From Obrimoposthia wandeli (lineage: Eukaryota): a stretch of 64,000 bases of DNA. Of the stretch, positions 35,601-64,000 are shown piece by piece. A model generated the notes under the pieces. It ran no database searches and was not told the DNA's origin. It saw nothing but the letters and a program-made list of their open reading frames with translations. The stretch's first letter is position 1, and the number at the start of each line of letters is the position of its first letter. Where the stretch lies: NCBI GenBank assembly GCA_977020255.1, contig CDROCS010005070.1, positions 186,001 through 250,000 of the forward strand. Reading direction: 5' to 3'. A program made the translations under genes and the position numbers.

Positions 35601-37150
35601 TGATAGGATTAGGATTTATAAAATTAATTAATTATATATATAGAAAATAGAACCCTGAAAGTAAGGTTAAAGAAAATAAAATAAATAAATGTTAAATGTT
35701 AAATGAAATAAAATTGGATAAATAATATTAGAATAATTTTAGGACCTTGAGGTCATGTTTGTTGTACAAGTATATAAGAAAGTTTAAATTATTAGAAAAG
35801 GCCCAAGAAGTTTAAAATCAAATTAGGAAAATTCATAGAAGCCTCTTACGCTGAGTTACGCTGAGAATCTGACAACTGTAAATTGTCTGGATAAGACAAT
35901 CTTGGAAAAATAGCTCAGAAATTCAATTAGCAGAAATTCCTAGAAGCTACTTACGCTGGGAATCTACCAGGTGCCGTTCGTCTGCACTTAATTCTGGTAA
36001 GTGCATATTTTCTTAAGTAACTGATTACTCTAAATTTTGTCAGTTGCTGAGAATAGATTAGCCCAATCGCAATTGGAATATCGTCAATTAACAGAAAGAA
36101 AATAAGTATTTAAACGAATTCTGAGACATTGAGGATTGATAAAACCGTCTCGCTTAAAAACAGAAAATCATCTTCACAACAGAGTAAGAAGAAAAAGAAA
36201 GGTATTAAGTTAATTTTGAGAAATAAAATCTCATTGCTAGATAGCAGAAGACGTCGAGCAACGGGAAGTCACCTCAAACCAGAAGGGTCGTAACTCGTCA
36301 CTCGAAACAACGGAAGGAAACGCCGAGACGGACAGAAACGGGAAACAACTCGGATCGTACAAATGTGAGGAGCCAAGACGGGAGACTCGAATCCGGATCC
36401 CGTGGACTTATCGCTGTATTAGGAATAGGTGAGAAGTAAATCGGAAATAAAGTCACATTAAATTTTGCATAAACTGTAACATAAAGTTATATTGACTTTC
36501 TAATTTTAACTAATAAATTAAAAAACTAAACCGAAAATTTGTCTGAATTCCATAACATTGGAATTTTATTAATCGTTATTTTCACACTAGTAAAATACGG
36601 AATTTGAAAATTTGCACTCCATCTTTATCAACTTTTACTGTACTGAGTAAAGTCAATTCAGGGAATAGAATCAAAGCAATGTCAAACCAAAAAGGAACTT
36701 GTGGAATTACTAAGTAGAGTTAAAATCAATACGTTAGGTCAGGGTCATCCTTGTTTAACCGTGTAGAGATGAGCGCAGCCGGACAAATTATTGTCGTTGT
36801 AGCACCTTTTTAGTTAAGTGCGAATTATTGTTATTGTCGTACTCTTTAGTCAAGCGTAAATAAATATATTATTTCCTACACAACAAGTTGAGTCAAACGT
36901 TCAACCCACATAAGATTAGAGCGATATGAATCCCTCCACACACCACACTACAATAAGGGAACCCTTTCAGTACCTTGTGCACACAACTCTGTAAACACCT
37001 CACACTACATTAGCATAAAACCTTCAGACTTGAGACTAAGTTAAGTAAGATAAAACTTAATTAGGCCACATCCATATGTAAGCCCTATTGCTACAGAACT
37101 CACGTTGAGGGCTTCCTTAAGAGGATCTAGTTTTGAATAGAAACCCAACA
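35601..37150 (+). mobile_element. Solo LTR B (1550 bp) of the same Gypsy LTR family
   Basis: TGATAGG...CCCAACA flanked by a perfect 4-bp TSD GTTG (35597-35600, 37151-37154). Contains GACC..GGTC hairpin, TATATAAG and G|GTAAGT; 3' end aligns with LTRs A and C. Confidence 0.8.
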
Positions 37151-39919: not shown

Positions 39920-41218
39920 CAGGGTGTCCCATAACGAATTACCCATGTTAAAAAACATTATAAAACGATTATAAATTCGATCAAAATCTTCAAGATTTTT
40001 AACTTTGCATGGAGTATATATTTGCTACACATCCTTATTGTTTCGTTTTACTATATCAATTTTATCAATAAGATATGGCGCCAGAAACAAAACGTGCCCA
40101 AATTGTTGCATTAAAAAATGCTGGAATTTCTAACAGTGATATAGTAAAGCAGCTGGGTGTGTGTCGCAAAACTGTTTTCAACGTCTGGAAACGACATAAT
40201 GAGGAGGCTACAACATTTGAGAAACCTAATCTAGGACGAAAAAGGTCAATCCGTACAAAACGAGTTGCTGAAGCTGTGATGAAACGAATCAAGAGGGATC
40301 CCATAGGAGCATGAGAAAATCTGCAAAAGCTATGAATATCTCAAAATCCTCAATGCATATGATATTTAAAAAGGATTTACTGATGACTGCATACAAAAAG
40401 CAATCTAGGCAGTTAATTTCAGGTGCTTCCAAGAAGAAACGGCTCAACAGGGGCATAATTATGTTAGCAGAAATGAAGCGCGCCGGCGAAAAAAAATGTA
40501 TCTGGTCTGATGAGAAGATCTTTACCGTGGAGGCAGTTGCTAATAAGCAAAATGATAGAATTTACGCACGTCATTCTACAGATCTTCCCGAAGGTAGCAG
40601 AACACATTTCAAGCGACAGAAACCAGCTGGAGTCATGGTGTGGGCTGCAGTTGCTTCTGATGGGTCTAAGTCCCCTCTGATATTCGTCGATGAAGGTGTT
40701 AAGGTGAACACTAATGTATACATCAAAATTTTGGATGAAAACGTGTTACCCTGGATCACTAGCACATTTGGAGAGCATTATGTATTTACTCAAGATGGTG
40801 CACCGGCTCACACGTCTAATTTGATTCAAAAATGGTGTAAAGATCATTTTTCTGAATTCTGGGACAAGAACGTATGGCCTCCCTCAAGTCCAGACATTAA
40901 CCCAATGGACTTTTCTATTTGGTCTATCTTAGAGAGCAATGTTTCCTCTAAATCATACTCAAATGTAGCTGCTCTAAAATAAGCCCTTCTTAACACATGG
41001 TCCAAGTTTGATGAGGAGGTGGTGCGGCGATCTTGTCAATCAGTGACCACTCGTTTACAGGCTATGGTGAAAGCAAGAGGCGGCCATTTTGAGATTTGAC
41101 TATTTTAATATATTGGTAAAATATATGTAAACGTATGGTCCGAGTTTTATTATTCTATCTTAAGTTAACATTGAATAATTTAAAAAAAAACATGGGTAAG
41201 TCATTATGGGACACCCTG
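39920..41218 (+). mobile_element. Tc1/mariner superfamily, maT (DD37D) element, full length
   Basis: TA-flanked TIRs CAGGGTGTCCCATAA..TTACCCATG / CATGGGTAA..TTATGGGACACCCTG; transposase inside. Confidence 0.95.
40075..41099 (+). pseudogene. DD37D transposase with one frameshift (~40305) and one premature stop (40980-40982)
   Basis: HTH N-terminus; WSDEK, QDGAPAH, SPDINPMD with 37 residues between the 2nd and 3rd Asp. The frame continues past the TAA to ..ARGGHFEI*. Confidence 0.92.
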
Positions 41219-43039
41219 TATTATTGCATCTTCATGATATAGTAATGATATTAAATTTATTATGAAATGTCAAATACATTTGAGGATCAAAATATAAAAT
41301 GGGATAGATAATATCTTGCGGGCATCTAAAACTTAATAACTCTGTAATTTCTCCAATTCAAAATTAGAAACAAAAAATCAATAGTATAAAAAAAATTCAA
41401 GAACCTTGTTAAATCAAAGTATCCCAAATCTATTAGCTAACATGGTCTTAATACCTGTAAAAAACTATCCATTCTGTACCATAAAATTAAAACAACAACA
41501 AAATGTCTGAAAATATCATAGAAACAACAAAAGGTTTATAAGTAATTTGAACCCTTAAGCAATTAAATTAAAATCTTTTGAAATGTCTCTCTAAAATAAA
41601 ACAACATTTCAAAATTTTGTAACTTTTAAATCCAAATTATCCTCTAGACATTCTTATTAAACTGTACAACTACAGTAAGAAATCAATACTATTGAAATAA
41701 CGCTGTCGATTTTAAAGAAAATCATTCTGGAAATTATGAAATTTCTTGTAAATTTTTTTTTAGACAAATGGAAGAAAACTCCACTATCAATAAGTCGACA
41801 AACGACAAAGGGTTGAAATATTGCTTCCCTATGTTATTTTATATTGTTACTTTAGTTGTACAAATATCATAAATTTGGTGGTTTTTGTACATTTTGTACA
41901 TCACTACTGCTAATAATAATATTATTAATAATGTTAATGAGGATTATTATCGCAATGCTCATAAATTAGTTCTTCTTCATTTTCAAGAACAATTCAACCA
42001 TAGAATGACACATGAAATCCTGGTCGGGAAATTGGACTAACAAAAACCGGGCCTCAATGTAAATGCACGCATATTGTGAGTCAAGTTTTGTCGAATGTGT
42101 ACGCGGCACCGAGAACGTTACATTGAAGAGAGAAGTATGGCCAAGTAGTAGTAGGGTTAGTGGTAGCAGTATCAGCAGAAAATTCAGTAGTAGTAGAAAG
42201 AAGCTGAAAAAGATTTATTGTTATTTCGTACACTAGAAGAGAAGAATCCCATATTTTCTTGCTGTATACCCATGGATTTATGGGTAAATAGGAAAAACCA
42301 AGCCAGAAATCCAGATAAGAGGGAGTATGGAGCGTGAAAACGAAGCATACACGTGCATTGAATGCTGGGTTTTCTTAGCTTCCGAAATTGTCAAAGTGTA
42401 GCAGCCCAAAATCTGGGTCAAAACGTTGCGCAAGACTGCAGTTTTCAGAGCGCAGAAAGAAGCTTCAAATAATCGCTAGAAGAAAGTTTTAGTGACAATA
42501 AAATCGGCGGAGACCAAACATTATCATTAGGAATATTAATATTATCATTATACTGTCATTGTATTTGGAATCTTCCTCCCACACTCAGATCTCCAAATCG
42601 GATTGTCGATTTACTGCAGTGTGTCTTGTGGATCGGTCCCCTTCGTCTTGTCAGCTCGATTTGGGAACGGGAAACGACAGGCCCAGACCAAACGCTTCTC
42701 AGCCAATCAACTCAGCTGGGAGATTTCTCTAGCAGAGATCATTTGCGAATTAAATGACTTCTGCTGGCTTGTAGATGATGTTCTTCCTGCTTAGTTGCAT
42801 TTCTTCAGCAGCCTTGTGTTGTGTCGTACTGAAAAATGCAGCAGCAGTGCGGATAATAACTGTGAGTGTGTGTGTATGTGTGAGAGATTGCCTACTTGCT
42901 TATTTGACTGTTTAGAATATATCGACAGACGTGTGTGTCCGGCTGTGTATGGATGTAAACCGTCCAGCGCATTTCATGGAGCAGCCGATTATATAAAAGG
43001 TGCAAAAAGTTACTGTAACAAGCATTTTAGGTTTAAGCA

Positions 43040-46000
43040 ATGCAACAAAATTATGGCAGCGTTTCTCAGTTGGTCGCTGACAATTGTGTAACTGCCAATA
43101 ACTACTCGGTATTGTCTCTTCTCGACCAGGATCATCCACTCGACCTTTCTAAATGTGTCCGGAAATCTCTGGACGTAAACAACAATAGTAACATCGGTGC
43201 TGCTAGCGTCTCCCAGAATGCCAACATCAGCAATCCACTTCTGGAAGCGCCATTCGTCATGCAAAAACTCTTCGAAGAGCTCCTGAAACGCCGCACGGAC
43301 TGGCCCTCTCCCTACCCCGGGTCCAGCAACAGTGGCTTCTTCCCACCACTTCCACCGCCACCTCCGCTCGACCCGCGTCTCCAATGGACCTCTTTGTGGC
43401 ATCGACTGATGAACAGTGTCGCCCAGCAGCACTCGACACCGAACAGCAGCGGCAAACTACAGAACCCACAATTGGAGACTCGCCGTAGACCGACTTTGTC
43501 ACCGCGCTCCCTCACAAAACAGCGTCACAAGCGAACCAAGGTAACCGACTCGAGACTCTTGAAACGTGCTACAATCGGGGGTGAGGATCCTAGCATCGAT
43601 TTCAGCAGTTCGGCGCTGATCAACGAGGATGAAGACTACGAAAATCGGTCCATCCTGTCTCGGTCACCTTCGGTTAACGACTCCGAACTGGATGATGAAC
43701 CCAACAACCTCAACCATAATTCCAACATAAGCCAATCATCTTTGACTGCCGCCAGTTTGTGCTGTAATGATCCTAAGAAATATACATTAACTCCGGTACA
43801 TTTGCGCAAAGCCAAACTCATGTTCCTTTATACTCGTTATCCCAACTCCCAAATGCTGAAGAGCTTCTTTCCCGACATACTGTTTTACAAACAAAATACG
43901 GCTCAGTTAGTCAAATGGTTTAGTAATTTTAGGTAATTTTTACGTTTTATTAATTTGGAAATATTTTCAGTTCACGTAACCAATCAGAATTTGATTTAAA
44001 GGTTTTTTACTTTTTCAGAGAATTCTACTACAGTGAAATGGAAAAGGCTGTTCAAAGGTACTTATCCGGCGGTATCAAGTTCTCAACTGAACTCATTGTT
44101 ACTGAAGACAGTGAACTATTCAAAAATCTGATGACACACTTTAACAAAAATAGCCAAATTGAGGTCAGTACTGCAAAATTGCTTCAATTTTGTATCTTCT
44201 TGAGAATTTCAACCATTAAAATAGTCGAAAAATAACAGATCAGATAAAAATTTATGAAAATCCAATTTGATCTAAACAAATAAGAATTCATTTCAATTCA
44301 TTTTAATAATTCTGGCGAATGAGAGAATGTAAAATTTAGAAAATTAGCTGAAGAAATTAAAGAAATTTTTCAAAAGTTTTATTAAAATATACTATCACTA
44401 TTTTTTTAGAAATATAAAATTCAAAAAATTGATCAATTTTAACTTTTTCAAAATTTATGAATTTATAATGGCAGATATCAAGGTTTAGACGTTTTTTTAA
44501 ATAAACCGTATTTAAATATTTTAAAAAATCTGTAGTTGTCTATTTGATTTATTTTTAAATTTTGATTATCTTATAATTATTGTGGCCATTGAGAAGAAAT
44601 TTTATAGACTAAATAAAGTATAGTAAAAATCATTGTAAAAACAGGAAAAATATTGTCTTTATAACTTACATAATCCATGTTAGCAGCATGTACCATGTAG
44701 CAATGATATTCGGAATTATTTAAATAACGAACTTTAGCTTGATTTTACTTTTTTTTCAAACTTTACAATTGTGAATAAAAGTCTTAATAAAAATTAATTT
44801 AATTGAAATTGGTCATATAGATTGATCAATTTTATAAAATCAAATTTTAAACTGAAAAACTGGATATTGGGACTCTACTAGTATGCATTGTGCTAAGAAA
44901 TCGGATTATAAAGAAATGGTTACAAAGGTCTTTTGGGAATATTCTAAGAAATTTCTGATTGACATACTTCAAGTAAACAATACAATTATTTTCATTTCAA
45001 TGGTCGAAGAAAACAGTTCTGGACAATATTTTATTGTGTTTTCTCACGCTAAATTGTAGGAAATTATGTTGGTTTTCAAAGTTAATATTGTAACAAATTT
45101 CTATCCAACATTGAAAATAGTTTGAATACAGAAGATTAAATCTTAAATATAAAAAAGACTCTGTTTATTTGTTTTATATATGTCTTTGGATGTATTATGC
45201 AATGAATTTTCATATTAAACTTATAACTTATTTCAATGATTTTATTTTAAAAAATTAAACATTTATAAGAGAATAATCTGAAGTTTCATTTAATCTAACT
45301 CATATTAATTTTATAGGTTAATGATATTAAATTAGCGAATTTATGCTTAAAATTTGCTAAATACATCTATTAAAATAGAAAATCCGTAACAGAAAACGAT
45401 AAAAGGTCTAGTTTTAAGAATGATATAATTTAATTTTTTAGCTTATTTAAATATATGATTTTAAATAAGTCAAATATAATTTTTCTATTTGAAAATAAAA
45501 TTAACTATATTAAAAGTTATATTATTTGTTAAATAATAATAAAATAAATTTGAACTTTAAAATAAATAAAATGTAATTATATTATTAACTTTAGTTTTTT
45601 TATATGAAACAATTAGTATAACCTACACGAATAATAGTAGAAAATAATCTTTTCAAAATCATTTTCGTTTAAAGGTATGACAATTTAAGGACATTTAAAC
45701 AAAGATATTTTAATCTTTAAGTTTAAAATTTCTCATTTTTGCAAGTGTATAGAAATTATGAATGAAAAAATTATGCCAGCATTAATATTTAGGGGTATAA
45801 TATTTAAACTGTTAATAGATAAATTAAATTGTATCAACAAAGTTTTTTTACAACTCAACATAAACAGAATATACAGGGTATTTCTGAATAGCCACATACT
45901 TTTGTTTTAACATTATTTTAGATTTTTGTAAATAATGCTTTCTTTAATAATTTTAAGATAAATAAGTGATATATCTTATAGTATGTAGATTAATAAATAA

Positions 46001-47198
46001 AAATTAAACAATGTATTATCAATTTTCATAGTTAATTAATAATATGTAATTGGAAGCAATAAAGTAAATTATAAAAATTCATTGTAAAATACAACATTCA
46101 CTGAAAGAATAGATCAAACAATACATATAAGAAAAGGTTTGAATAAATTCGATTGTAACAAATGTATTTTCTGTCAAAAATAAAATATATTTATGGAATA
46201 AACTCAAGCTATGAGGTTGATAAAACATATAAAAACATTCTAAATCGTAACAATGTTTATTTGAACAAAATTAAGGAAAAATAATTGTATTTATTTAGCA
46301 TAAATTTTGTATTTATCTAAAAATATTGTCAATCAATTTATAATAAAATATAATTAACTTTTGTAAATGCTTTATATAATTAGAATTGATAAATGACTAA
46401 ATATATAAAAGAAGTTTTATCGTATTGAAAACTATATTATAGATAATAAAATTATATTTTTTCAAATTAAAGTTGTTATCAACACCCTTATTATAGATTA
46501 AAACAAAACTATGACATTTGCAAGATGATTTATAATTATATTTTTAAAATAAATTTCCAGGCTCAATAATTTTATATTTTACATACTTTGTGTATAAGTT
46601 TGATTTATTTGATCTGTCTTCGATTTATTTAATAGTTCATTTTTATCTTTTAATTGCAAATTAGGTACAAATTAAATATAAAATAGCAATAATCAAGATT
46701 TAATTGTTAAAATGTAATTCAAATTATTATAATTTTTATAATTAATAATAACATATTTTATTTAAAGCCTAAAATGTATAAAAACATTATAACCTTAATT
46801 TGTATTTCTGAATCCAGGTCCCAAAGGAGTTTATGATGTGTGTTCAAGTGACCCTACGTGAGTTCTATGAGGCCATTTCTGTGGGCAAGAATCTTCACCA
46901 ATCCTGGAAAAAACCTATCTACAAGAATATCGCCAAACTCGATCAACCTCTACCGGAGTTCTTTCGAGATCTGTCCTGGATGTTAGAGCTAGCTCGTGAT
47001 GACTCTAATAGTGGTAGCAACAACGGGAACAGCAACAACGGGAACAGCAACAACGGCAGTAATAACAACACCAACAACAACAATGTTTTGCTTATGGCCA
47101 GTCACCCGCATCATCATCACCACCACCAGCAACAGCAGCAGCATCAACTGCATGCTCCAGCTATGCATCCTTCCATCCTTCATCATCAGAGCTGCTAG
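43040..47198 (+). CDS. pros: Prospero/Prox homeo-prospero transcription factor; exons 43040-43932, 44019-44163, 46818-47198 (472 aa if 43040 is the start)
   Basis: [31 protein letters not shown]|[25 protein letters not shown]|[32 protein letters not shown]; GT-AG introns preserve frame (1419 nt). Upstream exons cannot be excluded. Confidence 0.95.
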
Positions 47199-52758: not shown

Positions 52759-53275
52759 TGTTGGGGTTTCTATACGAAACTTGGTATAGATCCTCTTGAG
52801 TGCGGAGGGCCCCAACGTGAGTTCGATTAGAAGCAGGTCTTAAAGTTGGTCGTGGCCTACTTAGTGTTATTATTGCCTATCTCTTGTACTATCTGAAGGT
52901 ATTTGATTAGATGTCTCTTAGTCTGAAGGGTGCAAAAACAACTTGTTCTAATGTAGGAAATTGTTTATTTGAAATTCACGTAACTAACACAACGATACGT
53001 TTATGTACGTATTTCTAAAAAGTATGATAAAATTCCTAAAGGACTTCTGTAAGTCTCTACAAGAAGTGGGGATGAACCACGTATCGATTTTACGTTCAGG
53101 TGATTAAGCTTTTAGGTTTATTCTTCTTACTTAGGTTGGTTAATCTATAACGCAACTCTCTTAAAATTCTTCGCTCCTACTTCTGATCTTTAGATAAAGT
53201 TTCTTGATCCCTTAACTCTATCTGTTGTGTGTTTGACCCCAAATTGTCCACTGTGAACAATGGGTCTCCTAAAAC

Positions 53276-53674
53276 CTAATTGTCAAGATGACAATGAAAA
53301 ACTTACTCCTAATTGTCAACTATGGACAATGAACGAGCCGAATTGTCAGCTAGGGACAATGAGTCTTACCGAATTGTCAACTAGGGACAATGAGTATTTA
53401 TCCGAATTGTCAACTAGGGACAATGAATGAACCTAATTGTCAGCTAGGGACAATGAATCTTACGGGCAAAAAGTCTGGGTATGATTCCTAATTGTCGCTG
53501 GGGACAATGAATAAATGGCTGATCTTAATTACCAACTAGGGGCAATGATTTTGTTAAAGAGTCGGAAATCCTAATTGCCAGCTAGGGGCAATGAATATGT
53601 TTAAAATATGTTAAACAACCTAATTGCCAACAAGGGGCAATGAATTTATCCTAATTGCCAACTAGGGGCAATGA
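53276..53674 (-). repeat. Array of ~11 short palindromic units (ATTGTC-N7-GACAAT / ATTGCC-N7-GGCAAT) with variable spacers, inside the LTR
   Basis: Units begin near 53276, 53309, 53339, 53370, 53403, 53432, 53487, 53525, 53571, 53619, 53651. Confidence 0.9.
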
Positions 53675-53798
53675 ACGGTTTTAGTTGGTGTTCTTACCAG
53701 TTACTGCGACTAGTGGGACGTCCGATGCAGGATCCGTAGGTCTTTCGGAATCTTCTTCGAAGCAGCGATTATTACTTGTGAGAGGTTTGAGTACACGC

Positions 53799-54220
53799 TT
53801 GAATACACTTTGACTTTGACTTTTTGGACACTTGAATACACTTTGACTTTGACTTTTTGGATACTAAACAATTATTTTTATTCACAGCAATTATTTTTAT
53901 TCACCTTGAATACACTTTGACTTTGACTTTTTGGATATTAAACAATTATTTTTATTCACAGCAATTATTTTTATTCACCTTGAATACACTTTGACTTTGA
54001 CTTTTTGGACACTAAACAATTATTTTTATTCACCTTGAATACACTTTGACTTTGACTTTTTGGACACTAAAACAATTATTTTTATTCACAGCAATTATTT
54101 TTATTCACCTTGAATACACTTTGACTTTGACTTTTTGGACACTAAACAATTATTTTTATTCACCTTGAATACACTTTGACTTTGACTTTTTGGACACTAA
54201 AACAATTATTTTTATTCACC
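53799..54220 (-). repeat. Tandem array (7 cores; units 33-75 bp) inside the LTR
   Basis: TTGAATACACTTTGACTTTGACTTTTTGGA core repeated 7 times with variable CAATTATTTTTATTCAC sub-repeats. Confidence 0.9.
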
Positions 54221-54230
54221 TGAAATCACT

Positions 54231-54331
54231 ACTTACCGAGAACTCAATTGTTCGATTTGTGGTCCAGTCGACTCTGGCTGTTGAATCCCGTATTTGTGTT
54301 TTTGAATTGAATGAACCTATCTCCTTATATA
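54231..54331 (-). promoter_or_regulatory. LTR promoter TATA box (54331-54324) and downstream 5' splice donor G|GTAAGT (54237|54236)
   Basis: TATATAAG then G|GTAAGT occur in the same order in LTR A (13376-13369; 12970) and LTR B (35771-35778; 35997). Confidence 0.65.
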
Positions 54332-55001
54332 AAGGCAGTCTTGTCAATCAAATGACAGCTGATTCGTATCGCTGGAAATTTCTTCTTACTTAAGATCTAA
54401 AAATCAATAAATCCTATTGCACTTAAAATGTGCTTACCTTGACGTCTCTTGATTGACGTGACTAATTGATTTCCTAATTTAATGGCTTCTCCTTAATTAA
54501 TCTTAACAATTGTCCTTTTTGGGTTAATTAATTTAACTTTTATACATTTTCACATTATACACGACCTTCGTGGTCCTCCTAATTTTTACCCTAAATTCCA
54601 CTAATTTTAATTCTAACTAAAATTAATATTTTAATTTAATTTTCAACCTTGTTTTCAAGGATTTTTATTTTAGTATTTAATCGACTAAATATTTAAATTT
54701 CTTAATTCTCAAACCTAACATACCTCGGGGGTTCCAAAAAAGTTACGTCCCCGGAACGTATCGATTTTACTTAATAAGCCTTTGGCTGTTGATTTTAGGT
54801 TCATCCCTACAAAATCAATCATTCAACTTCAACAAACATGCCCAAAAAATTTTCCTCAAAATCCCGGTTTTTAGTGGGAGACATAATATATAATTTGGAG
54901 CAAGTCTCAAACCATACATTATTACTTATACACAACTAAAAATTTACACACAAAATTACATGCATAACTAAGGGTTAGGAAGGAAAGAAGGGAGGAAAGG
55001 A

Positions 55002-55532
55002 TCAATTGTCATATGTCAGGTCAATTGTAATTGTCGGCTGGTTCCGACTGGCCAGGTAGCGCAGAACCTGCTCCAGGGGTAGGTCGGGAAAGGACGGACT
55101 GTCCCCGTTGTACAGGTGTAGTTGTTGGCTCCGGGTTAGGTGTGGACTCTCGATGAACAGGTCGAAATGCTGCCCGTTTATGGCGTGATTTTCTATCCAG
55201 TGCCGTCTGGCCTGGAACCACGAGTGGCAGTCTCGACTAGACCGCCATCTCTCGCGGATGCCCAGTTGTGTGTCGCGCCGGCGTGCGAGACACACGTAGC
55301 ATTGGCAATGTATGCCACCAATGCAGCTGGCAGGCGATCGGGTGCCCTTGTGCCTTCCACGGCTCTGGAGCGTCCATTTGGCAAAGGGTGTCCGGCACAG
55401 TGGACATGTGATATGGCCGGGGGGTCGAGCCTTGGTCCACAAATAGAGGCACTCCTCGTGGAATTTGTGACGGCAGCCGACAGGGGATGCTGATACCGCC
55501 CAAATCTTCTCCATGCATACAGAACACTTCAT
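55002..55532 (-). CDS. RING-H2 protein 3 with extra Cys motif and C-terminal extension (176 aa from MKCSVC)
   Basis: CSVC..CRHKFHEEC..W..CPLC, then CIGGIHCQCYVC; acceptor TTTTCTTATGCAG directly before the ATG. Confidence 0.85.
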   Translation of the reverse strand: MKCSVCMEKIWAVSASPVGCRHKFHEECLYLWTKARPPGHITCPLCRTPFAKWTLQSRGRHKGTRSPASCIGGIHCQCYVCLARRRDTQLGIRERWRSSRDCHSWFQARRHWIENHAINGQHFDLFIESPHLTRSQQLHLYNGDSPSFPDLPLEQVLRYLASRNQPTITIDLTYDN

Positions 55533-55872
55533 CTGCATAAGAAAACAACTCCTTTCAATTTGGGGTTCACTGTTCTCATTGTTAATTTAAATTTTATTTC
55601 AAAACGAATCCTTAGTTATCTAATCCTACCGAGTTTTGTTTCGATTTTAGGCATGTTTACGCATTCACACTAAGCATAAAAATTGTCTTTTTTAGAAATT
55701 CAGTATAATAATTACAATTTCAGTTAAACATCATACATAAAAATGGTAATGGTCAATTTACAGTTCACAAGATTATATAATTATGATTACAATTATGGTA
55801 GCTAATTTATCGCGGTATGCGATACACAGGGTAGTTCATGATATCACGTTCAAGTCAGAAAGTTACCTTCGA

Positions 55873-56178
55873 TTATTGTTGGGGATTGGGCTGGCCTGTG
55901 CTTCGCTCCTCCACGCAGAACGAGCACCAGCAATCGCAGATGGTTTTCCAGCAGTGTACGATGGGTACCACTGCTTGGAGGCTGTCCTGGTTGTACACGT
56001 AGTGTACTGAGAAGGTCGCTCTGCACATCGGGCAGGTTGGGAAGTCGAGGGGATTGTTGCTGTTTGCGATGGGGATCCACGTCTCGAGGCATTCGACGTG
56101 GAAAAGGTGGTCGCAGTTGTTGGGCTTGGTGTAGAAGTCCACGATGCTCTCGTAGCAGATGGAACATTCTCCAGACAT
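55873..56178 (-). CDS. RING-H2 protein 2 (101 aa)
   Basis: CSIC..CDHLFHVEC..W..CPMC, then CWKTICDCWCSFC. Confidence 0.9.
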   Translation of the reverse strand: MSGECSICYESIVDFYTKPNNCDHLFHVECLETWIPIANSNNPLDFPTCPMCRATFSVHYVYNQDSLQAVVPIVHCWKTICDCWCSFCVEERSTGQPNPQQ

Positions 56179-56238
56179 TACTGTGGGAGGGTTGATGTTG
56201 AATTTGGGCTCGATTGAGGACTGGTGGTTGTGTGATGT

Positions 56239-56538
56239 TTACACAAAAGTGGTCTGATTTTGTCGATCTGACAAACAGTAATAACACCAACACTCTCCGA
56301 AATTCTTCCAACAGAATACCACCTGTACATATACATCCTCTTGGTTGGGTTCTAACATGATGAATCTTGCGAATTGTCTTCTGCATACAGGGCAACAAGG
56401 GTATGTTGGATGTCCGAACTGTCCATAAGTTCTGATCCATGTCGATAAACATTCCTCGTGGTGTAAATGGCTGCAGGTTTCGGGTCTTGTTCTTCGTTCG
56501 GTTAGATCTTCCAAACATATTGGGCATTCTTCGGACAT
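56239..56538 (-). CDS. RING-H2 protein 1 (99 aa from MSEECPIC)
   Basis: CPIC..CSHLHHEEC..W..CPVC, then CWKNFGECWCYYC. Confidence 0.9.
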   Translation of the reverse strand: MSEECPICLEDLTERRTRPETCSHLHHEECLSTWIRTYGQFGHPTYPCCPVCRRQFARFIMLEPNQEDVYVQVVFCWKNFGECWCYYCLSDRQNQTTFV

Positions 56539-56661
56539 TCTAAATACATGATGATGATTAATTTCTACATGAGTTTTATATATTTCTACTATTTGTACAA
56601 TCACTTCTAGATATTTCTAAACATTTCACACACTAATTTATCTACAACCTCCTCTGACTCA

Positions 56662-57711
56662 TCATATCTTGATGGGAGGCGGAGGTAAGGGTCGCAATTC
56701 CACTTCCTCCATGATGGGTGTGTCACAGCATCGCAATCTTTCGCATTTTCGTCGTATTCCTGGGCATACTTGACTGCCTTTTACGCACACGATTGTCAAT
56801 AGAACCACTGCTGTTGACACTACGGCCATTCCAATTAGGGCATTGACCGCTGTTATTCCGCTGTCTGATGATTTATAATCATACTTCATTTTGTTGTTTG
56901 TCGGTTCGAATGACATTTCCATGGGTTTTGATCGGTTTCCATGTATTATGTCCGATTTTCTAAAAATTCGGGGATTTGGGTGTTTTGTTTCTGATGGAAC
57001 AGGTATTATTATTTTGGATTGGAAATGATGTTTGGGATCTAGTGGGATCGTTCCCCTCACTCTTGTCCTCTTAATAATTGTACTTTGGTTTCTGGGATTG
57101 AGCTCTTTTTCTTTCGCTTCTGTCTTTGTTCTGATCACTGTCGGTTTTTTGGAATGTCGTTTACTTTCGTTTACTTTTGCCTTCTTTCTGACTAGGATTG
57201 GCCTTTTGGGAATGATTTTCCTGGGTTTGATACTTATACCGGATCTACGAAATCGACGGTTCTGGTATCTTAGAGTTATGTAGAATATTTCACCTGTTAT
57301 TATCATGATTATGGTCGAGGTCTCTGTAGTATTACTGGAAATTCGATTACACAGACATTCTGTGTTAAAATGTGGTACTAACATTTGGCTTTGGATTTCG
57401 AATCTGATTCCGCCATCTGGGTTGGGACACATTACTGTTACTCTGTCGGTCTCTAGCAATCTGAAAAATATCCTAACGGAATTCCATACGGCTTTACGTC
57501 GTCTACCTGTGATCATAATCCTGTCGACAATTTTCCAGATGCGTTCATCTCTAGGCAATATTAATGACTTTGTTCGGATACTTTGGATAATCCGCTTCCT
57601 CTTCGATATTGTTATCCGTAGGTATAACACTTTTTCATGATACAATAATATTAAATTGTAATCGGGTGTATTTTGGTCGATTTTTATTCTGACCTGTCGG
57701 ATGACATACAA
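56662..57711 (-). CDS. Basic ectodomain + C-terminal TM + Cys/Pro-rich tail; probably the C-terminal part of the preceding ORF
   Basis: 349-aa open frame, open upstream to ~57780; sequons NTT/NES/NQS/NRS; RFRR; TM ITAVNALIGMAVVSTAVVLLTIVCV; tail CC..PLPPPP. Confidence 0.75.
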   Translation of the reverse strand: MYVIRQVRIKIDQNTPDYNLILLYHEKVLYLRITISKRKRIIQSIRTKSLILPRDERIWKIVDRIMITGRRRKAVWNSVRIFFRLLETDRVTVMCPNPDGGIRFEIQSQMLVPHFNTECLCNRISSNTTETSTIIMIITGEIFYITLRYQNRRFRRSGISIKPRKIIPKRPILVRKKAKVNESKRHSKKPTVIRTKTEAKEKELNPRNQSTIIKRTRVRGTIPLDPKHHFQSKIIIPVPSETKHPNPRIFRKSDIIHGNRSKPMEMSFEPTNNKMKYDYKSSDSGITAVNALIGMAVVSTAVVLLTIVCVKGSQVCPGIRRKCERLRCCDTPIMEEVELRPLPPPPIKI

Positions 57712-57772
57712 TTTCTGATCGATATTGTCGGTTGCTGACGTCTGTAGATGAATGTCTACTACGTGATTTGTT

Positions 57773-60700
57773 TTAGAAGGGGGTTTCTATGTATACTGCC
57801 CGTATTACGTCTTGTCTCCATTTACTGATCATGATCTCATAACTAGCCTTGGTAGTGGTGATTTGTATGATCAGCATGATTCCTATGATCGTTCGATTCC
57901 TAAACTCAGGAACTTCAATGAAACAAGTCAAATTACTCATATAGTACGGTCTTTCCTCGATATGTTCATATATCGTTGGCTGGTACTCTGGTGCTGGTTC
58001 ATCTAGAAATGGTGGTCTTGGTATAATTGTGTTGAATTTTTGTAAGTTCATTTGACCTGTTCGTCTTGCGAGATCATGACGTTTCTTTTTTGATCTCGAC
58101 TCTATCTTTGTACAACAAAACAAGATGAGTAATATTAATATTATAAATCCAATGATCAGTGCGAGTATTGGATTAATCAATTCTAGAATACCGTAACGTA
58201 CTGCTGGTATTCCTTTACTCTTGATGGTTAATATTTTAAATTTGTGTGCACTTTGGTTGGATATGTCACTGAGAAGTACTATTTTAGTTTGTCCAAATGT
58301 GTAGTCTTCACATGTGACAACATCAATTCCATAATGTCTATTAAGTGTTTTCATTTCGGTCGCTGGAACTATACATATCCGTCCTGGGCATCCTTTTACA
58401 CACATGATCATTACAGCTTTACTGTAGGATGTCTTGATTATTTCTAGGGTGTTGTCTAGATTTCTCAAATGTAAATTATATTCGGATAGTGTCATCAATT
58501 CGGCTTTACTGGTTGGCATGGCTTGCAGTACCAATCCAATTACTACTCCATAAATCAATCCTTGTGCAACGGTGCACAGGGCCTTGACTGACCTTTTGCA
58601 AAGGGTTTTAATTATCAATCGTTTAAGAGATATCTGTTTCTGATTGGATCGTTTTGTTGTCTGTCGTTGTTTTGACATCTCCTCGATTCCATCTCTTCCG
58701 ATAATCAACTGTACCGGTTTACCTTGTATCGTCAACTTTCCCAATCCATTTTTGGCGGACAAGCATGTTTTATGTCCTTCCATCGTTTCAATTATTACTC
58801 TCTTACTTCCATACTCACGTGTTTTGATGACATCGCCGTCGAATATATACGTTGGTCCTTTTGTATCAGCATCTTTTTGTATTTCCTTTACAACTCGTTT
58901 TCTTCGCTTGCATCCGGCGAATGTTGTTGATATTCGGTCAAGTGTGCGCTGTCGGTCAGCTTCGTAATCTATTCGAAATTGATTCAGTATTCTGTTTTGT
59001 GGGTAAAATATCGCTTCATTTACTATGTTGTCCTCGATCCTTTCGTCTAGATACACAAGCACTTTGTTCGTTGGTCCATTTGGTCTTTTCATCTTTACAA
59101 ACTGAAATCTTTTACTGTCGGTTCTCATAGATCGAAGACATTTTCGGATGATCCACACATCAATTAGTCCTAACAACACTAATAGCATCATCAGTGCCGG
59201 CGTATGGTACTGTATGGTGTAGTTGTGGATATCGATGAACCAGGAACTATTTCCGTGGTTGGAGCCTATCTCCTGTGCTCCCGTTATCGGCATTAAACAA
59301 CTTAACAAGCCTATCGCTAGCAATCTTTGGTATTGAAAGCTGGGCACTGTTGTTGTAGCTTCATTTGTTTCTCGTTGTTGTTTCCTCTTTTCGGTGTATT
59401 TCTCTATTTCTCGAACGAGTAACGGTTTGAATTCCGTATTCGGTCTATTCTGTTTGATGTAGACCATCGCTTCTTCTGGCGTGTGACCATGGTACTCTAC
59501 CAACAAGGATACACCTATGGTAGGCGCTAACATTGTACCTTTTTTCTGATATATCAGAACGCCGTTTCCTTCTGTGACTTCAGCTTGGATGGTTTGAGTC
59601 AATTTCGTCAGATGTTGTTGTGCATCGTTTATTTCTCGATTGGAAGCATGTATGTATCGAGTGGTGTCGTCTTCAGTATTTTGACACAGACTAATTATCT
59701 CGTTTCCGACTTCAACAATGTTGATTACTCGGTTGATACTGTGGAACTTTAATCCAGCAGTATCTATATCTCCTGGATGACATAAAAATACTTTTGGCAT
59801 TATCTGTGTAATTTTGTCGACTCCGGCTAAGAATAACCCGGTCAACGATAATGCTTGGAGGAAATTCTTTTCCTTTGGGTCCTCAGGAATGTCGTCCATC
59901 CGTCTTTGTTCTTGCAACAGAAGTTGGTAATTTGCCAACTGTCCCAAAAAATTAAGATTTGGGTTTGCAATACTTCTTCTCTCCTGTAGGTATTTTAGCG
60001 CTTCTAGTACCTGCATTCGTCTAGTCTTTATTAGGTATGCTAATACTAGAGTTGCTGATCGAGAAATTCCTTTCTGACAATGTACCAACACTTTTCCTTG
60101 GTTCCGGAGTTCTCTGTGAAGTATTTCGTTTGTTTCTACGAACCATTCGAGAAGATTAGCGTCCATTGAGTCTTTTACTCTTAATGTCATAGCTCTGATC
60201 GTCTGATATTGTGATTTGTGATTCATTGTAACGTTGATCACGTATGTTATCCCTTGTTCCAACAGTTTCTTTTCATCTGTTGCATCCTCCACATTTCCGA
60301 GGTATAACTTACCTGGAATGATCTCACTCATTGGTGGCATTAATTCTGACTCTTCAAGTTTTAGTCTTTCTAATCTCTTCTCTATTTGTTCGTCGATGTT
60401 GGATAGTTTCGCCAGTTTCTTTCCTCTCAGCATTCGTATTGCTGGAGAGATATTCATCTTTGTCTCTGATGTCTGTTCCTTTGTTGAGTCTTCTTCCGAC
60501 TCGGTCTCCTCTGCAGATTTAATTCGTCTTTCTTGTATATTCTGTTTCACGAATTCTATGTTTTGTCTTTTTCTGCTCTCTTTAGCGAATTCAATCTCCA
60601 TGGTTCTTCCGAATCGCTCTATTATGTTATCTTCGGATTCTGTTGATTCTGTATCGTTACTCTCCGGTTCGCTGTCTTCACTAGACTCGCTCGAAGGGTA

Positions 60701-61687
60701 TTCTGGTATGTCTGTCTGGACTGAAATTAATGAAGGGGTTAGAATAATTGGATTGATTTCCCCTTCGTATTTGTGAATCGGATACGGTATTACACTATCT
60801 TTAAGTATTTCAACTTGGAACTGTGCTCCATAGCACATGACAATTGTTTCTAATTTACCCATGATGGACAATCCATCAAAATAGGTAACATTCAGCTTAG
60901 ATATCGGTGTCTTCGCATAATTAATTAAGTTTACTCGTATCTCAGTTGATGACGGCCATCGATTTTTTAGTAAAATTATAATTTCGTCGTTTATCGATGT
61001 GATCACACTTGGCGCGGATGATACTATTTCAGCATGATATTTTGGCTGGATTGAGTTGGTCACTTGTTCTCGGATCATATTGATTCTTAGTGGTTTTTTA
61101 TTTTTAGCTTCCCACTTCCGGTATCCGCTGTCAATGCGTAACTCTGCCGTTGCTTTGATGATTTTATTGTTAGCCACTTCCGGTTGGGTCGGCGAATGAA
61201 ATCCTTCTATTACGCTCAACCTTACAGATACTTCCGTTTGATCTGTATCTAACCGGTGAGATTCTGGTATACAACATACAATTGTCTTTCCGTCAAAGTA
61301 TTTGGTGTCCATCTGACAAATTATCTTTTCAGTGTCAGCGTCGATTAAATGGACTCTCATGATATCTCTTTTCCCATGTGAATTACGTAATACCATTATT
61401 ACATCGTGGTATTCTTGTTTGAGTCTTTTTGGTGTACCATGCAGTATGTGACCACCGGCCGGTTCCTTCTCTTCCTGACTGGCTAGTCCTGCTTCAGTAC
61501 TGTCATAGTTCTGCCATGCAACTATGTTTGGTGTCAATGTGATTTCGATTATCACTTTCTCAGTCGTAAACACATTGGAATTTTGATAAAGTGCTGCGAC
61601 TAATGTATTTCCGTCGTAGTATGACACTCTAAGTTCGCACAGAAATTCGTTTGTCAGTGCATCTTTCACAATGACTTCTTTAGCCAC
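57773..61687 (-). CDS. 1304-aa cargo ORF: Ig/IPT-like repeats, dual-specificity phosphatase, pseudophosphatase, multiple signal/TM segments
   Basis: YFDG/YYDG repeats; SEIIPGKLYLGN..D..VLVHCQKGISRSATLVLAYLI..NPNLNFLGQL (DSP); second DSP-like fold with VLIYQKKGTMLA. The called start is a GTG, and the frame overlaps the integrase end. Confidence 0.88.
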   Translation of the reverse strand: MAKEVIVKDALTNEFLCELRVSYYDGNTLVAALYQNSNVFTTEKVIIEITLTPNIVAWQNYDSTEAGLASQEEKEPAGGHILHGTPKRLKQEYHDVIMVLRNSHGKRDIMRVHLIDADTEKIICQMDTKYFDGKTIVCCIPESHRLDTDQTEVSVRLSVIEGFHSPTQPEVANNKIIKATAELRIDSGYRKWEAKNKKPLRINMIREQVTNSIQPKYHAEIVSSAPSVITSINDEIIILLKNRWPSSTEIRVNLINYAKTPISKLNVTYFDGLSIMGKLETIVMCYGAQFQVEILKDSVIPYPIHKYEGEINPIILTPSLISVQTDIPEYPSSESSEDSEPESNDTESTESEDNIIERFGRTMEIEFAKESRKRQNIEFVKQNIQERRIKSAEETESEEDSTKEQTSETKMNISPAIRMLRGKKLAKLSNIDEQIEKRLERLKLEESELMPPMSEIIPGKLYLGNVEDATDEKKLLEQGITYVINVTMNHKSQYQTIRAMTLRVKDSMDANLLEWFVETNEILHRELRNQGKVLVHCQKGISRSATLVLAYLIKTRRMQVLEALKYLQERRSIANPNLNFLGQLANYQLLLQEQRRMDDIPEDPKEKNFLQALSLTGLFLAGVDKITQIMPKVFLCHPGDIDTAGLKFHSINRVINIVEVGNEIISLCQNTEDDTTRYIHASNREINDAQQHLTKLTQTIQAEVTEGNGVLIYQKKGTMLAPTIGVSLLVEYHGHTPEEAMVYIKQNRPNTEFKPLLVREIEKYTEKRKQQRETNEATTTVPSFQYQRLLAIGLLSCLMPITGAQEIGSNHGNSSWFIDIHNYTIQYHTPALMMLLVLLGLIDVWIIRKCLRSMRTDSKRFQFVKMKRPNGPTNKVLVYLDERIEDNIVNEAIFYPQNRILNQFRIDYEADRQRTLDRISTTFAGCKRRKRVVKEIQKDADTKGPTYIFDGDVIKTREYGSKRVIIETMEGHKTCLSAKNGLGKLTIQGKPVQLIIGRDGIEEMSKQRQTTKRSNQKQISLKRLIIKTLCKRSVKALCTVAQGLIYGVVIGLVLQAMPTSKAELMTLSEYNLHLRNLDNTLEIIKTSYSKAVMIMCVKGCPGRICIVPATEMKTLNRHYGIDVVTCEDYTFGQTKIVLLSDISNQSAHKFKILTIKSKGIPAVRYGILELINPILALIIGFIILILLILFCCTKIESRSKKKRHDLARRTGQMNLQKFNTIIPRPPFLDEPAPEYQPTIYEHIEERPYYMSNLTCFIEVPEFRNRTIIGIMLIIQITTTKASYEIMISKWRQDVIRAVYIETPF

Positions 61688-63057
61688 ATCTGTCGGTTGT
61701 GTTTTTCGAAAACAACTATTATCTCTTCGTCTTCTTCTAATATCTCTTGTGGTGCGATGTGTCGGATTACTTCCTTTTCCTCTTGGTACTTCATTCTGAG
61801 CATACCAATTCTCGCTGGTTTTTCCTTGCTACCACTCGTCATCATGTTTATGTAGTTCCGATCACTTACCATTCGTGTAAGTTTAATGGTATTGGTATTC
61901 GATTTCGATTTCTGTGATCTTAACTCATATCGTGACGCATTATCTTTATTTGGTACTAATTTGCATCGATTTGCATGTACAATCATCGGTTCCTTGTTCC
62001 GATTCTCTTCGTTGATTACTTTCAAATTTGTTGAGGTTGTCTGGATCACCTTGTATGGTCCTTTGTATGGTCTATGAAGTTTAAACGATAGACCTGGTTC
62101 GATGACTGGATAAAATATCATCACTTGATCTCCGACTCTAAATTCATGTGGTTTTGCTTTTTTGTCGTATTGTTCCTTGTAACCTTCTTGATTGAATTTC
62201 AACTTCAATCCGGCTTTGGTCCAAGCATCTTGTAACCTTTCCTTCATAACGACAATGTATTGTTCAGTTTCTAGATACTGAGATGTTGGCTCGGTCCACT
62301 CCAGATCCATTGGCATATTGTTCTGTCTGAGATACATCAGATAGAATGGTGTGTGACCCGTCGCCTCTCGAACTGAATTCCTGTAAGCATATAAACATGA
62401 AGGTAAATATTTATCCCAATCCTCTTGCTTGTCGGAGCAATAGGATTGTACCATCATACATAAAGTTTTATTAAACCTTTCTACCAGACCATCTGTCTGT
62501 GGGTGATATGGTGAAGTTTGCAACTTCATGATTCCGAATATCTTCGATACTGCTTTTATGACTTCTCCAGTGAAGTTCTTACCTTGATCTGTTAACAACT
62601 TTCTAGGCACTCCGTATCGAAATATTATCTCTTCCACTAAGATTTGCGCTATTGTTTCAGCTTTCTGGTTCTGCATGGGATATGCTTCTACCCATCTCGT
62701 CATGTAGTCCGTAAATACTATGACGTACTTGTTTCCTTTACTTGATTCTCTCAATGGTCCCAATATATCCATCGCTGTGAATTCCATTGGTGCCAAGGGA
62801 ACTGGCATTGGTTTCAGTGGAACTTTAGTACGAGTTCCGGTGTCTTTTCTGGTTAAACATACTTTACATTGTTTACACCATTGTTTTATGTCGTCTTCCA
62901 TACCATCCCAATGGTACTTCTCTTTGATTCTGGCTATTGTCTTTCGCCCTGACAGATGTCCTCCTAGTGTTCCGTCGTGATACTGGATCATCACTGCTGT
63001 TTTCAATGACTTCGGAATTACTACTACTATCTTTCCGACATTATTGACAATATACAA
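61666..63057 (-). CDS. Gypsy integrase (HHCC, DDE, GPY/F) with a C-terminal extension; frameshifted from RNase H
   Basis: HDGTLGGH..CKQC, AMDILG, LTDQG, DGLVERFNKTL, PYKGPYKV. Confidence 0.95.
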   Translation of the reverse strand: MYIVNNVGKIVVVIPKSLKTAVMIQYHDGTLGGHLSGRKTIARIKEKYHWDGMEDDIKQWCKQCKVCLTRKDTGTRTKVPLKPMPVPLAPMEFTAMDILGPLRESSKGNKYVIVFTDYMTRWVEAYPMQNQKAETIAQILVEEIIFRYGVPRKLLTDQGKNFTGEVIKAVSKIFGIMKLQTSPYHPQTDGLVERFNKTLCMMVQSYCSDKQEDWDKYLPSCLYAYRNSVREATGHTPFYLMYLRQNNMPMDLEWTEPTSQYLETEQYIVVMKERLQDAWTKAGLKLKFNQEGYKEQYDKKAKPHEFRVGDQVMIFYPVIEPGLSFKLHRPYKGPYKVIQTTSTNLKVINEENRNKEPMIVHANRCKLVPNKDNASRYELRSQKSKSNTNTIKLTRMVSDRNYINMMTSGSKEKPARIGMLRMKYQEEKEVIRHIAPQEILEEDEEIIVVFEKHNRQMWLKKSL

Positions 63058-63068
63058 GATTCCTTCTT

Positions 63069-64000
63069 TTATCGAGTATTTTTCGTCATTTCATCGTTTA
63101 GATCTCCTTTCACCAACAATTCTTTGATTAGACTCAGTTCTTCATCTTCTGTCTGTTCTTTGATGATTTCTTTGTCTATTTTACCCGTCTTTAGCAAAAT
63201 CGTCAGTAGATTTGCTTCTCCTTTTTGGTCATTGGCTCCATCTTCTTCTGGAATTATGTTTCCTTTTTCATCTACATTTGTCAATCTCGATAAACAATCT
63301 GCGTTGCCATTCGACTTTCCGGTTCTATAACGGATTTCTAGATCGAATTCGGCCAATTTTAGAAACCATCTGTTTAATCTACTCATCTCATCTCTATGTT
63401 TATATAAGAACTGTAGTGGTTTGTGATCTGTATACAGGAATACTTTTTGTCCTAGCAAATAGTGTCTGTACTGTCTACATGAATACACTATGGCTAGACA
63501 TTCCTTTTCGATAACAGAGTATCCTCTTTCGGCTCTGTTTAATCCTCTACTTGCATACTCAATGACGTGTTCTCTTCCTTCGTCATCCTCTTGTCCCAAT
63601 ACTGCTCCTACAGCATAGTTACTTGCATCTGTCATGAGTATGAACTGTCGGTTTATATCTGGAAACGCTAATATCGGTGTTTTTATCAATCTTTCTTTTA
63701 AATGCTCGAACGCTTGTTGGGCTTCTTCTCCCCATATGAACTTCTCATCTTTTCTCGTCAACTTTCTCAATGGTGTTGCTATATCTGAAAAATGTTCAAC
63801 AAATCGTCTATAATAATTCGCAAGACCTAAAAAACTCTGTATCTCCTTAACAGTCTTTGGTGCTAAATGCGCTTTTACTTTCTCGATCTTTGCCGGATCA
63901 GGTCGAATGCCTTCTTTCGATACTATATGTCCTAAAAATGTTACTCGCTCTTTAGCCCATTCGCATTTTGTAGGTTTAACTTTTAATTTAGCGTTTTCCA
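63069..64000 (-). CDS. Gypsy Pol: RT C-terminus/connection and RNase H (5' truncated by window)
   Basis: Open frame from the window end: KCEWAKERVTFLGHIVSKEGIRPDP..SFLGLANYYRRFV..TDASNYAVGAVL..EKECLAIV..YTDHKPL..NADCLSR. Confidence 0.96.
   Translation of the reverse strand, partial: ENAKLKVKPTKCEWAKERVTFLGHIVSKEGIRPDPAKIEKVKAHLAPKTVKEIQSFLGLANYYRRFVEHFSDIATPLRKLTRKDEKFIWGEEAQQAFEHLKERLIKTPILAFPDINRQFILMTDASNYAVGAVLGQEDDEGREHVIEYASRGLNRAERGYSVIEKECLAIVYSCRQYRHYLLGQKVFLYTDHKPLQFLYKHRDEMSRLNRWFLKLAEFDLEIRYRTGKSNGNADCLSRLTNVDEKGNIIPEEDGANDQKGEANLLTILLKTGKIDKEIIKEQTEDEELSLIKELLVKGDLNDEMTKNTR

Follow-up and report, generated by a model that had tools for sequence, protein, structure and literature searches.

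The window, the whole 64,000-nucleotide stretch of Obrimoposthia wandeli DNA analysed here, holds at 52759-64000 on the minus strand the 3' half of an LTR element, with RNase H, integrase, dual-specificity phosphatase, three RING ORFs and an LTR. The rest of this copy occupies the next 10.5 kb of the contig, whose end falls inside the 5' LTR. Read in the direction of the element, its features are the following:

56662-64000, minus strand: 3' part of the giant polyprotein frame (RNase H, integrase, two DUSP domains, C-terminal tail; Pfam)
56540-56541, minus strand: acceptor-like AG 1, TTTAG|A-ATG (in longer form TATTTAG|A-ATG), before the ATG at 56538 (sequence, conservation)
56239-56538, minus strand: RING1, 99 aa, RING-H2 plus a C-terminal C-x6-C-x-C-x2-C motif (Pfam zf-RING_2)
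56181-56182, minus strand: acceptor-like AG 2, CCTCCCACAG|TA-ATG (CACAG|TA-ATG), before the ATG at 56178; the spacer is CA in subfamily B (sequence, conservation)
55873-56178, minus strand: RING2, 101 aa, C-ending codons 58 of 102 (Pfam zf-RING_2)
55593-55598, minus strand: AATAAA 66 nt before the RING3 ATG, a possible but weak internal poly(A) signal
55533-55534, minus strand: acceptor-like AG 3, TTTTCTTATGCAG|ATG (GCAG|ATG), before the ATG at 55532; the best supported of the three (sequence, conservation)
55002-55532, minus strand: RING3, 176 aa from the second ATG, with types of 165-170 aa in other copies (Pfam zf-RING_2)
52759-54720, minus strand: 3' LTR, TG...CA, 1962 nt, the interior differing strongly between copies after about 200-300 nt
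54324-54331, minus strand: TATA box TATATAAG; an ATG-free zone starts just downstream
54231-54239, minus strand: donor-like TCG|GTAAGT in R, GT at 54236-54235, +95 from the TATA start; a putative splice donor
52964-52969, minus strand: AATAAA, likely the poly(A) signal, about 215 nt before the primer-binding site in family A

Six full copies measure about 23.3 kb, with LTRs of 2.0-2.6 kb (94-99.7% identity within pairs), a primer-binding site and a single frame of about 16 kb; the LTRs end in TG...CA and five of the six copies have 4-bp target duplications. The primer-binding site TGGTGCCCCGAGTGAGG lies 7-8 nt past the LTR in 12/12 5' ends, and a polypurine tract was looked for in the 30 nt preceding the 3' LTR, where no classical purine run was found. 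The giant frame spans about 5,350 codons, with natural open pieces several thousand codons long, in the order Gag-Env-BIR-RING-Pol-phosphatase, and three paralogous RING-H2 genes follow it. Its domains are a zinc knuckle, a mononegavirus-type fusion protein, two proteases, BIR, RING, RT, RNase H, integrase and two DUSP. Env sits in-frame between gag and pol, and both Env (PF24664, E 4e-94) and BIR (PF00653, E 4e-10) are in the RT frame. In the window copy the polyprotein is split into several frames and the RING genes are intact. A first look for the RING region across the 1.35-Gb assembly gave 2737 candidates, of which the 40 scored are 99% identical. An env-family search returned relatives at 90-97% only and no distant Burro-like family. 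We also found an older subfamily B, 65-75% identical to what we call family A, for which 29 copies were used after one of 30, with an unrelated 5' part, was dropped. The PR-RT-RNase H-integrase order is that of Ty3/gypsy (Metaviridae) and, judged from its structure, the element is a young, high-copy, ~23-kb Burro-like member of that group.

The three RING proteins all score above the Pfam cut-off for zf-RING_2, are paralogues with 32-38% identity and have the C-terminal cysteine motif in common. Given the RING-H2 match, they are putative E3 ubiquitin ligases. The AlphaFold model of RING1 reached a pLDDT of 45 and was left unused, and a homologue search with RING2 as query gave no candidate. 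RING2 (55873-56178) and RING3 (55002-55532) use C/G-ending codons (GC 55-57%) against an A-rich polyprotein. Look-alikes in the ESM Atlas are small RING proteins, mostly from large DNA viruses (0.90-0.94), which is a lead only to the origin of RING2 and RING3. A drop in depth over RING3 had been read as cargo swapping at acceptor 3, a reading that was rejected as the fetched copies carry diverged RING3 types. Additionally, a 225-aa frame (56527-55850, minus strand) overlaps RING1, the spacer and RING2. Synonymous shuffling leaves it open in just 1% of cases over RING1 and 10% over RING2, subfamily B shows no shared stop in it, and it lies in a region of low fourfold-site divergence (6/48 vs 23/89 in the polyprotein), with no Pfam match above the cut-off; it may be a by-product of the C-ending codons or a real overprinted gene.

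Other features of the window and the assembly were recorded as well. The element lies 5.5 kb downstream of a host prospero gene, on the opposite strand (43037-47198, plus strand; two homeo-prospero exons about 2.9 kb apart). Related older-family LTR ends, fragments resembling Polinton-type DNA polymerase B and, by eye, a mariner-like transposase piece were noted at 12278-12700 and 36650-37150, 9340-12079, 34411-34992 and 40272-40979. One copy (L305) has, in the region matching 56000-57500, a sense-strand A-to-G patch (232 vs 85-91 in three controls) that fits ADAR hyper-editing of the RNA intermediate. The assembly also encodes a large family of single-exon N-terminal RING ORFs of about 300-330 aa in tandem clusters.

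Promoter, leader and donor-like sites of the LTR

The original prediction placed a G|GTAAGT donor-like site about 90 nt past the LTR TATA box, and such a site is present at +95, with another donor-like sequence, CAG|GTGAAT, 17 nt after it. Its duplication in the 5' LTR was borne out in five of the six full copies, which have a donor-like site there, while that of the window copy is not visible because the contig end cuts its 5' LTR. Forty 3' LTRs were then surveyed, picked on RING similarity, of which 38 could be located. A donor-like GT occurs at +45 to +125 from TATA in 32 of the 38, or 12 of 16 unrelated contexts, compared with 9/64 downstream and 3/16 antisense control windows (combined shuffle P 0.003), figures to be read knowing that the TATA pattern, the search interval and the donor weights were set after inspection and that the weights are generic textbook values. 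The surveyed GTs fall 64-112 nt beyond the TATA box, in contexts that include TCG|GTAAGT, CAG|GTGAAG, TTG|GTAAGG, GAG|GTGAGC and AAG|GTAAGA, and no TATA-to-donor leader contains an ATG; in six of the 38 LTRs, that interval lacks a donor-like site. A conserved U3 motif, AGGTAAGCACATTT (54440-54425, minus strand), found upstream of TATA in many LTR variants, is donor-like and probably a factor-binding site. This motif scores equally (8/16 contexts), so that donor-likeness is no proof of a donor.

The LTR interiors (window 54500-53100; loci L227-L258) show 16 donor contexts among 38 copies and differing tandem repeats, with a coding region that is 99% identical, and the LTR promoter modules appear to have been swapped by recombination. 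From TATA+25 to the LTR end, 27 LTRs contain 3 ATGs in 47,056 nt where about 700 are expected, and 846 on the other strand. In five full copies, 0-1 ATG occurs across the 2.6-3.5 kb ahead of the Gag start. This leader (window 54305-52759 and the 5' UTRs of the six full copies) is nearly free of ATG despite long tandem repeats, and would be unusually long if scanned. Such a leader supports the TATA assignment and suggests first-AUG scanning on the unspliced RNA; it also means that the donor is not needed for reaching Gag. The RING genes lie about 19 kb downstream, after hundreds of ATGs, and the 340-nt RING3 spacer has 9 more. Under first-AUG scanning, separate mRNAs are therefore likely needed for the RING genes.

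Acceptor-like sites at the RING start codons

An acceptor AG at most 2 nt before every RING ATG had been predicted, and all three lie exactly where they were placed on the minus strand. A YAG 0-2 nt before ATG is found at 22/207 ATGs of the element strand in the window and at 47/457 in a full copy (10%), and any AG in that position has a background of 26-29%. If independent, YAG-ATG at 3/3 RING genes would have a probability of about 0.001; as the genes are paralogues, the sites may descend from one ancestral site and the count is weaker. Other N-terminal RING ORFs of the assembly, many of them near-identical, have YAG in 0/28 and AAG in 3/28 cases (28 of the best 30 with a Met before the RING). 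Ranked by pyrimidine content and AG-free run among the 675 YAGs of one copy, RING1 is in the top 3%, RING2 in the top 1.5% and RING3 in the top 14%. A loose acceptor filter passes 60 of these 675, five of them within R/U5, which gives the LTR donor nearer candidate partners. A YTNAY branch motif occurs at -19 of site 1 in the window copy and at about -20 of site 3 in subfamily B, and was absent at site 2 and at site 3 of the window copy.

Conservation was examined in three sets of copies. In family A (54 loci), YAG precedes 46/46 RING1 starts and 49/51 RING2 starts found, and also all 46 pattern matches for RING3, one of which is probably a RING1 start. Subfamily B keeps the AG of site 1 in 28, of site 2 in 27 and of site 3 in 25 of its 29 copies. 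Twenty stretches were also fetched by env, five of them without the RING region and two ending before RING3; here site 1 is kept in 14/15, site 2 has YAG in 14/15, and RING3 has GCAG|ATG in 13/13, the upstream ATG being missing from all. In the RING1 and RING2 spacers, 7/13 and 2/3 AGs are kept in B, in surrounding DNA that is about 80% conserved, and retention of these two sites says little because neighbouring AGs are kept too. RING3 behaves differently: of the 11 AGs from 55803 to 55534, the last alone survives in 80% or more of the B copies. Many lineages have lost the in-frame ATG that lies 6 nt before RING3, or have it in another frame, and the spacer (0 or 1 nt) and codon 2 vary, while GCAG is constant. 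CAG provides a poor Kozak -3 base, so that its retention at RING3 is unexplained by translation context; the AGA and GTA at RING1 and RING2 do place a purine at -3, a point against the splicing reading there.

In the same genome, the start of the 3' exonuclease ORF reads YAG|ATG in 28/30 copies of a distant gypsy family, family C, which shows no clear donor past its TATA. This family (L146 and L181-L210) is high-copy, has similar LTR ends and encodes a 375-aa RNase T-type exonuclease ORF after CCCTACAG|ATG. On comparative grounds, selection of the YAGs as 3' splice sites is supported, and taking all splicing readings together, we consider their use in splicing quite probable.

Genomic copies of spliced junctions were also searched for. 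The patterns gave 7 matches for RING1 and 9 for RING3, and 0/16 were junctions, all being point variants with normal upstream DNA. Runs X1-X4, from one sample, have flat depth and hundreds of variants and are DNA-like, which makes them uninformative on splicing; in their contig sets, no joint falls at the acceptor sites among the 15 joints listed of 125.

Alternative readings of the RING acceptors

In the reading that we favour, transcription would start from the LTR TATA box and the unspliced RNA would be scanned to the first AUG, giving Gag. The 40-90-nt ATG-free leader of the 5' LTR would be cis-spliced from the R donor, over about 19 kb, to one of the three acceptors, yielding one subgenomic mRNA per RING gene, three in all, with 3' ends presumably at the LTR AATAAA. 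Lacking U5 and the primer-binding site, the spliced RNAs would escape reverse transcription, which fits the missing junction copies and proves nothing. As E3 ubiquitin ligases, the RING proteins may counter host defence or cell death, alongside the BIR-RING and DUSP domains of the polyprotein.

Other explanations deserve attention. The acceptors may be real and take a host spliced leader (SL) in trans, the RING genes then behaving like an operon of flatworms in the last part of the element RNA, which we regard as unlikely. The host is likely a free-living flatworm, since multi-copy COX1 reads best under code 9 with best matches to triclads (69-71%), although the assembly also contains bacterial and mollusc-like contigs (many of its COX1 genes are bacterial and one is mollusc-like, indicating other organisms), which makes this likely and not certain. 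Passages of two reports describe SL trans-splicing and operons with about 100-nt spacing in free-living flatworms (PMC8629364, PMC12582326). The spacers here are of 123 nt (RING1), 60 nt (RING2) and 340 nt (RING3), and a poly(A)-like signal lies 50-70 nt before RING3 (AATAAA in 40/46 family-A copies, AATAAA or ATTAAA at -50 to -63 in 22/29 of B), but no AATAAA precedes RING1 or RING2. Flatworm SLs are reported to terminate in ATG (a passage of PMC12582326). This ATG would be out of frame at RING1, would meet an immediate stop at RING2 and would have a frame at RING3 that depends on the subfamily, so that the SL reading is disfavoured, and it would add an upstream ATG to an element that otherwise purges them. 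A cis donor is also said, in part of one report, to out-compete the SL (PMC4558846, citing Hastings 2005). A low probability is likewise given to cis-splicing from some other donor, either the post-PBS CAG|GTAAAT, about 90 nt past the primer-binding site (PBS), or one within the polyprotein, the R site then blocking 5'-LTR polyadenylation via U1 or joining R/U5 acceptors. In this sense, foamy viruses offer a precedent, as their R-region donor suppresses 5' polyadenylation independently of splicing (PMC3694450), and acceptor-like sites are indeed present in R/U5. The post-PBS site, as CAG|GT(A/G)AAT, occurs in 8/8 family-A 5' ends, one copy without an R donor included, but is missing there in 4/4 subfamily-B 5' ends, and B keeps all three acceptors. 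Splicing from it would give RNAs that retain the primer-binding site, and DNA copies of such junctions might then exist; none was found, a weak argument, since for RING1 and RING3 the patterns detect a post-PBS joint only where base -4 is A or C.

Two further readings dispense with splicing. Expression of the RING genes from internal promoters or by reinitiation, the AG being Kozak context or a relic of gene capture, is in our view quite unlikely. TATATAAAA stands 44 nt before RING1 in the window copy and CATATAAG about 52 nt before RING3 in most B copies, and the 20 nt ahead of the ATGs are A/C-rich and look like 5' UTRs of the other RING ORFs of the assembly. Nevertheless, the RING1 TATA-like motif occurs in 1/29 B copies only, that of RING3 is missing from family A and the RING2 spacer has none; the 9 ATGs ahead of RING3 would stand in the way of reinitiation, and the invariant CAG|ATG at RING3 would be left unexplained. 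A functionless ancestral YAG-ATG, duplicated with the gene, is compatible with one such site at 10% of ATGs and with upstream sequences of RING1-3 that look alike by eye. We judge this chance origin highly unlikely, considering that the sites were retained through 62-68% protein divergence between the paralogues, and that of RING3 while 10/11 neighbouring AGs were lost.

With moderate confidence, then, we propose that three RING mRNAs are cis-spliced from the LTR leader. The RING-specific subgenomic mRNAs remain a prediction, which acceptor conservation and the ATG-free leader support. The LTR donor as partner gains indirect support from the donor-like sites in 32/38 3' LTRs and 5/6 5' LTRs, and is weakened by the 6/38 without one, the post-PBS site and the SL trans-splicing known in the host lineage.

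Comparison with known elements and implications

The element is a member of Ty3/gypsy and no retrovirus, and it is Burro-like, a likeness drawn from descriptions. Planarian Burro / GYPSM1 are giant gypsy-like elements of >30 kb, described as holding all functions in one polyprotein (review section in PMC6431247). As in Burro, the element exceeds 20 kb, is present in thousands of copies, has one polyprotein of about 5,000 aa and a likely flatworm host, and carries a Gag zinc knuckle, an in-frame mononegavirus-type Env between gag and pol, a BIR, a weak ubiquitin-like match and tandem repeats (same section). In contrast to Burro as described there, it measures 23 kb, has two protease domains, BIR-RING and two DUSP after integrase, gives no Pfam match at E 0.05 to BCL2, MATH or ankyrin in four scanned pieces covering the giant frame, and has three RING-H2 genes ahead of the 3' LTR. 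The Burro section of that review describes neither splicing nor a 3' RING cassette.

By sequence and conservation, the element has a group of accessory genes 3' of pol/env with one acceptor-like site apiece, and it likely works like a complex retrovirus. In HTLV-1, the accessory genes of pX are made by alternative splicing and, as here, several small accessory genes lie between the structural genes and the 3' LTR (passages of PMC12088518). HTLV-1 belongs to Retroviridae and its pX has overlapping de novo frames and doubly spliced RNAs (same passages), whereas the present element has three duplicated non-overlapping genes with the ATG after the acceptor, their splicing being a prediction. The major splice donor of foamy viruses likewise follows soon after the start site, precedes both the primer-binding site and the poly(A) signal, and is present in the two LTRs (PMC3694450). 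Unlike that donor, the one described here varies in sequence between LTR variants. Foamy accessory genes are expressed mainly from an internal promoter.

Among LTR retrotransposons, a spliced 3' extra ORF has been called typical (passage of PMC5408684). A single spliced ORF3/env is reported for bdelloid Vesta/Juno (PMC5408684), Cer1 CERV (PMC10309623) and BARE (PMC3735527). An exonuclease ORF3 among such elements matches the family-C ORF. As described in those parts of the reports, they have one extra gene and one main spliced form, and no row of three genes with three acceptors. Searches of open-access literature text yielded no gypsy cassette with three acceptors served by a donor in R. We give about an even chance to the broader proposal that an invertebrate gypsy element independently arrived at the organisation of a complex retrovirus, with three duplicated E3-ligase genes in a pX-like row, each switched on through its own acceptor from a short R leader, and a dozen or more unrelated LTR promoter-leader modules that are interchangeable and have their own donors.

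The reading predicts three exact junctions. If true, Burro-type elements would also run a regulated, HTLV-1-like accessory region beyond their single polyprotein, and this region would be composed of ubiquitin-ligase genes, likely directed against host defence or apoptosis. Furthermore, LTR promoters would be freely swappable provided that the TATA, the ATG-free leader and the donor are retained.
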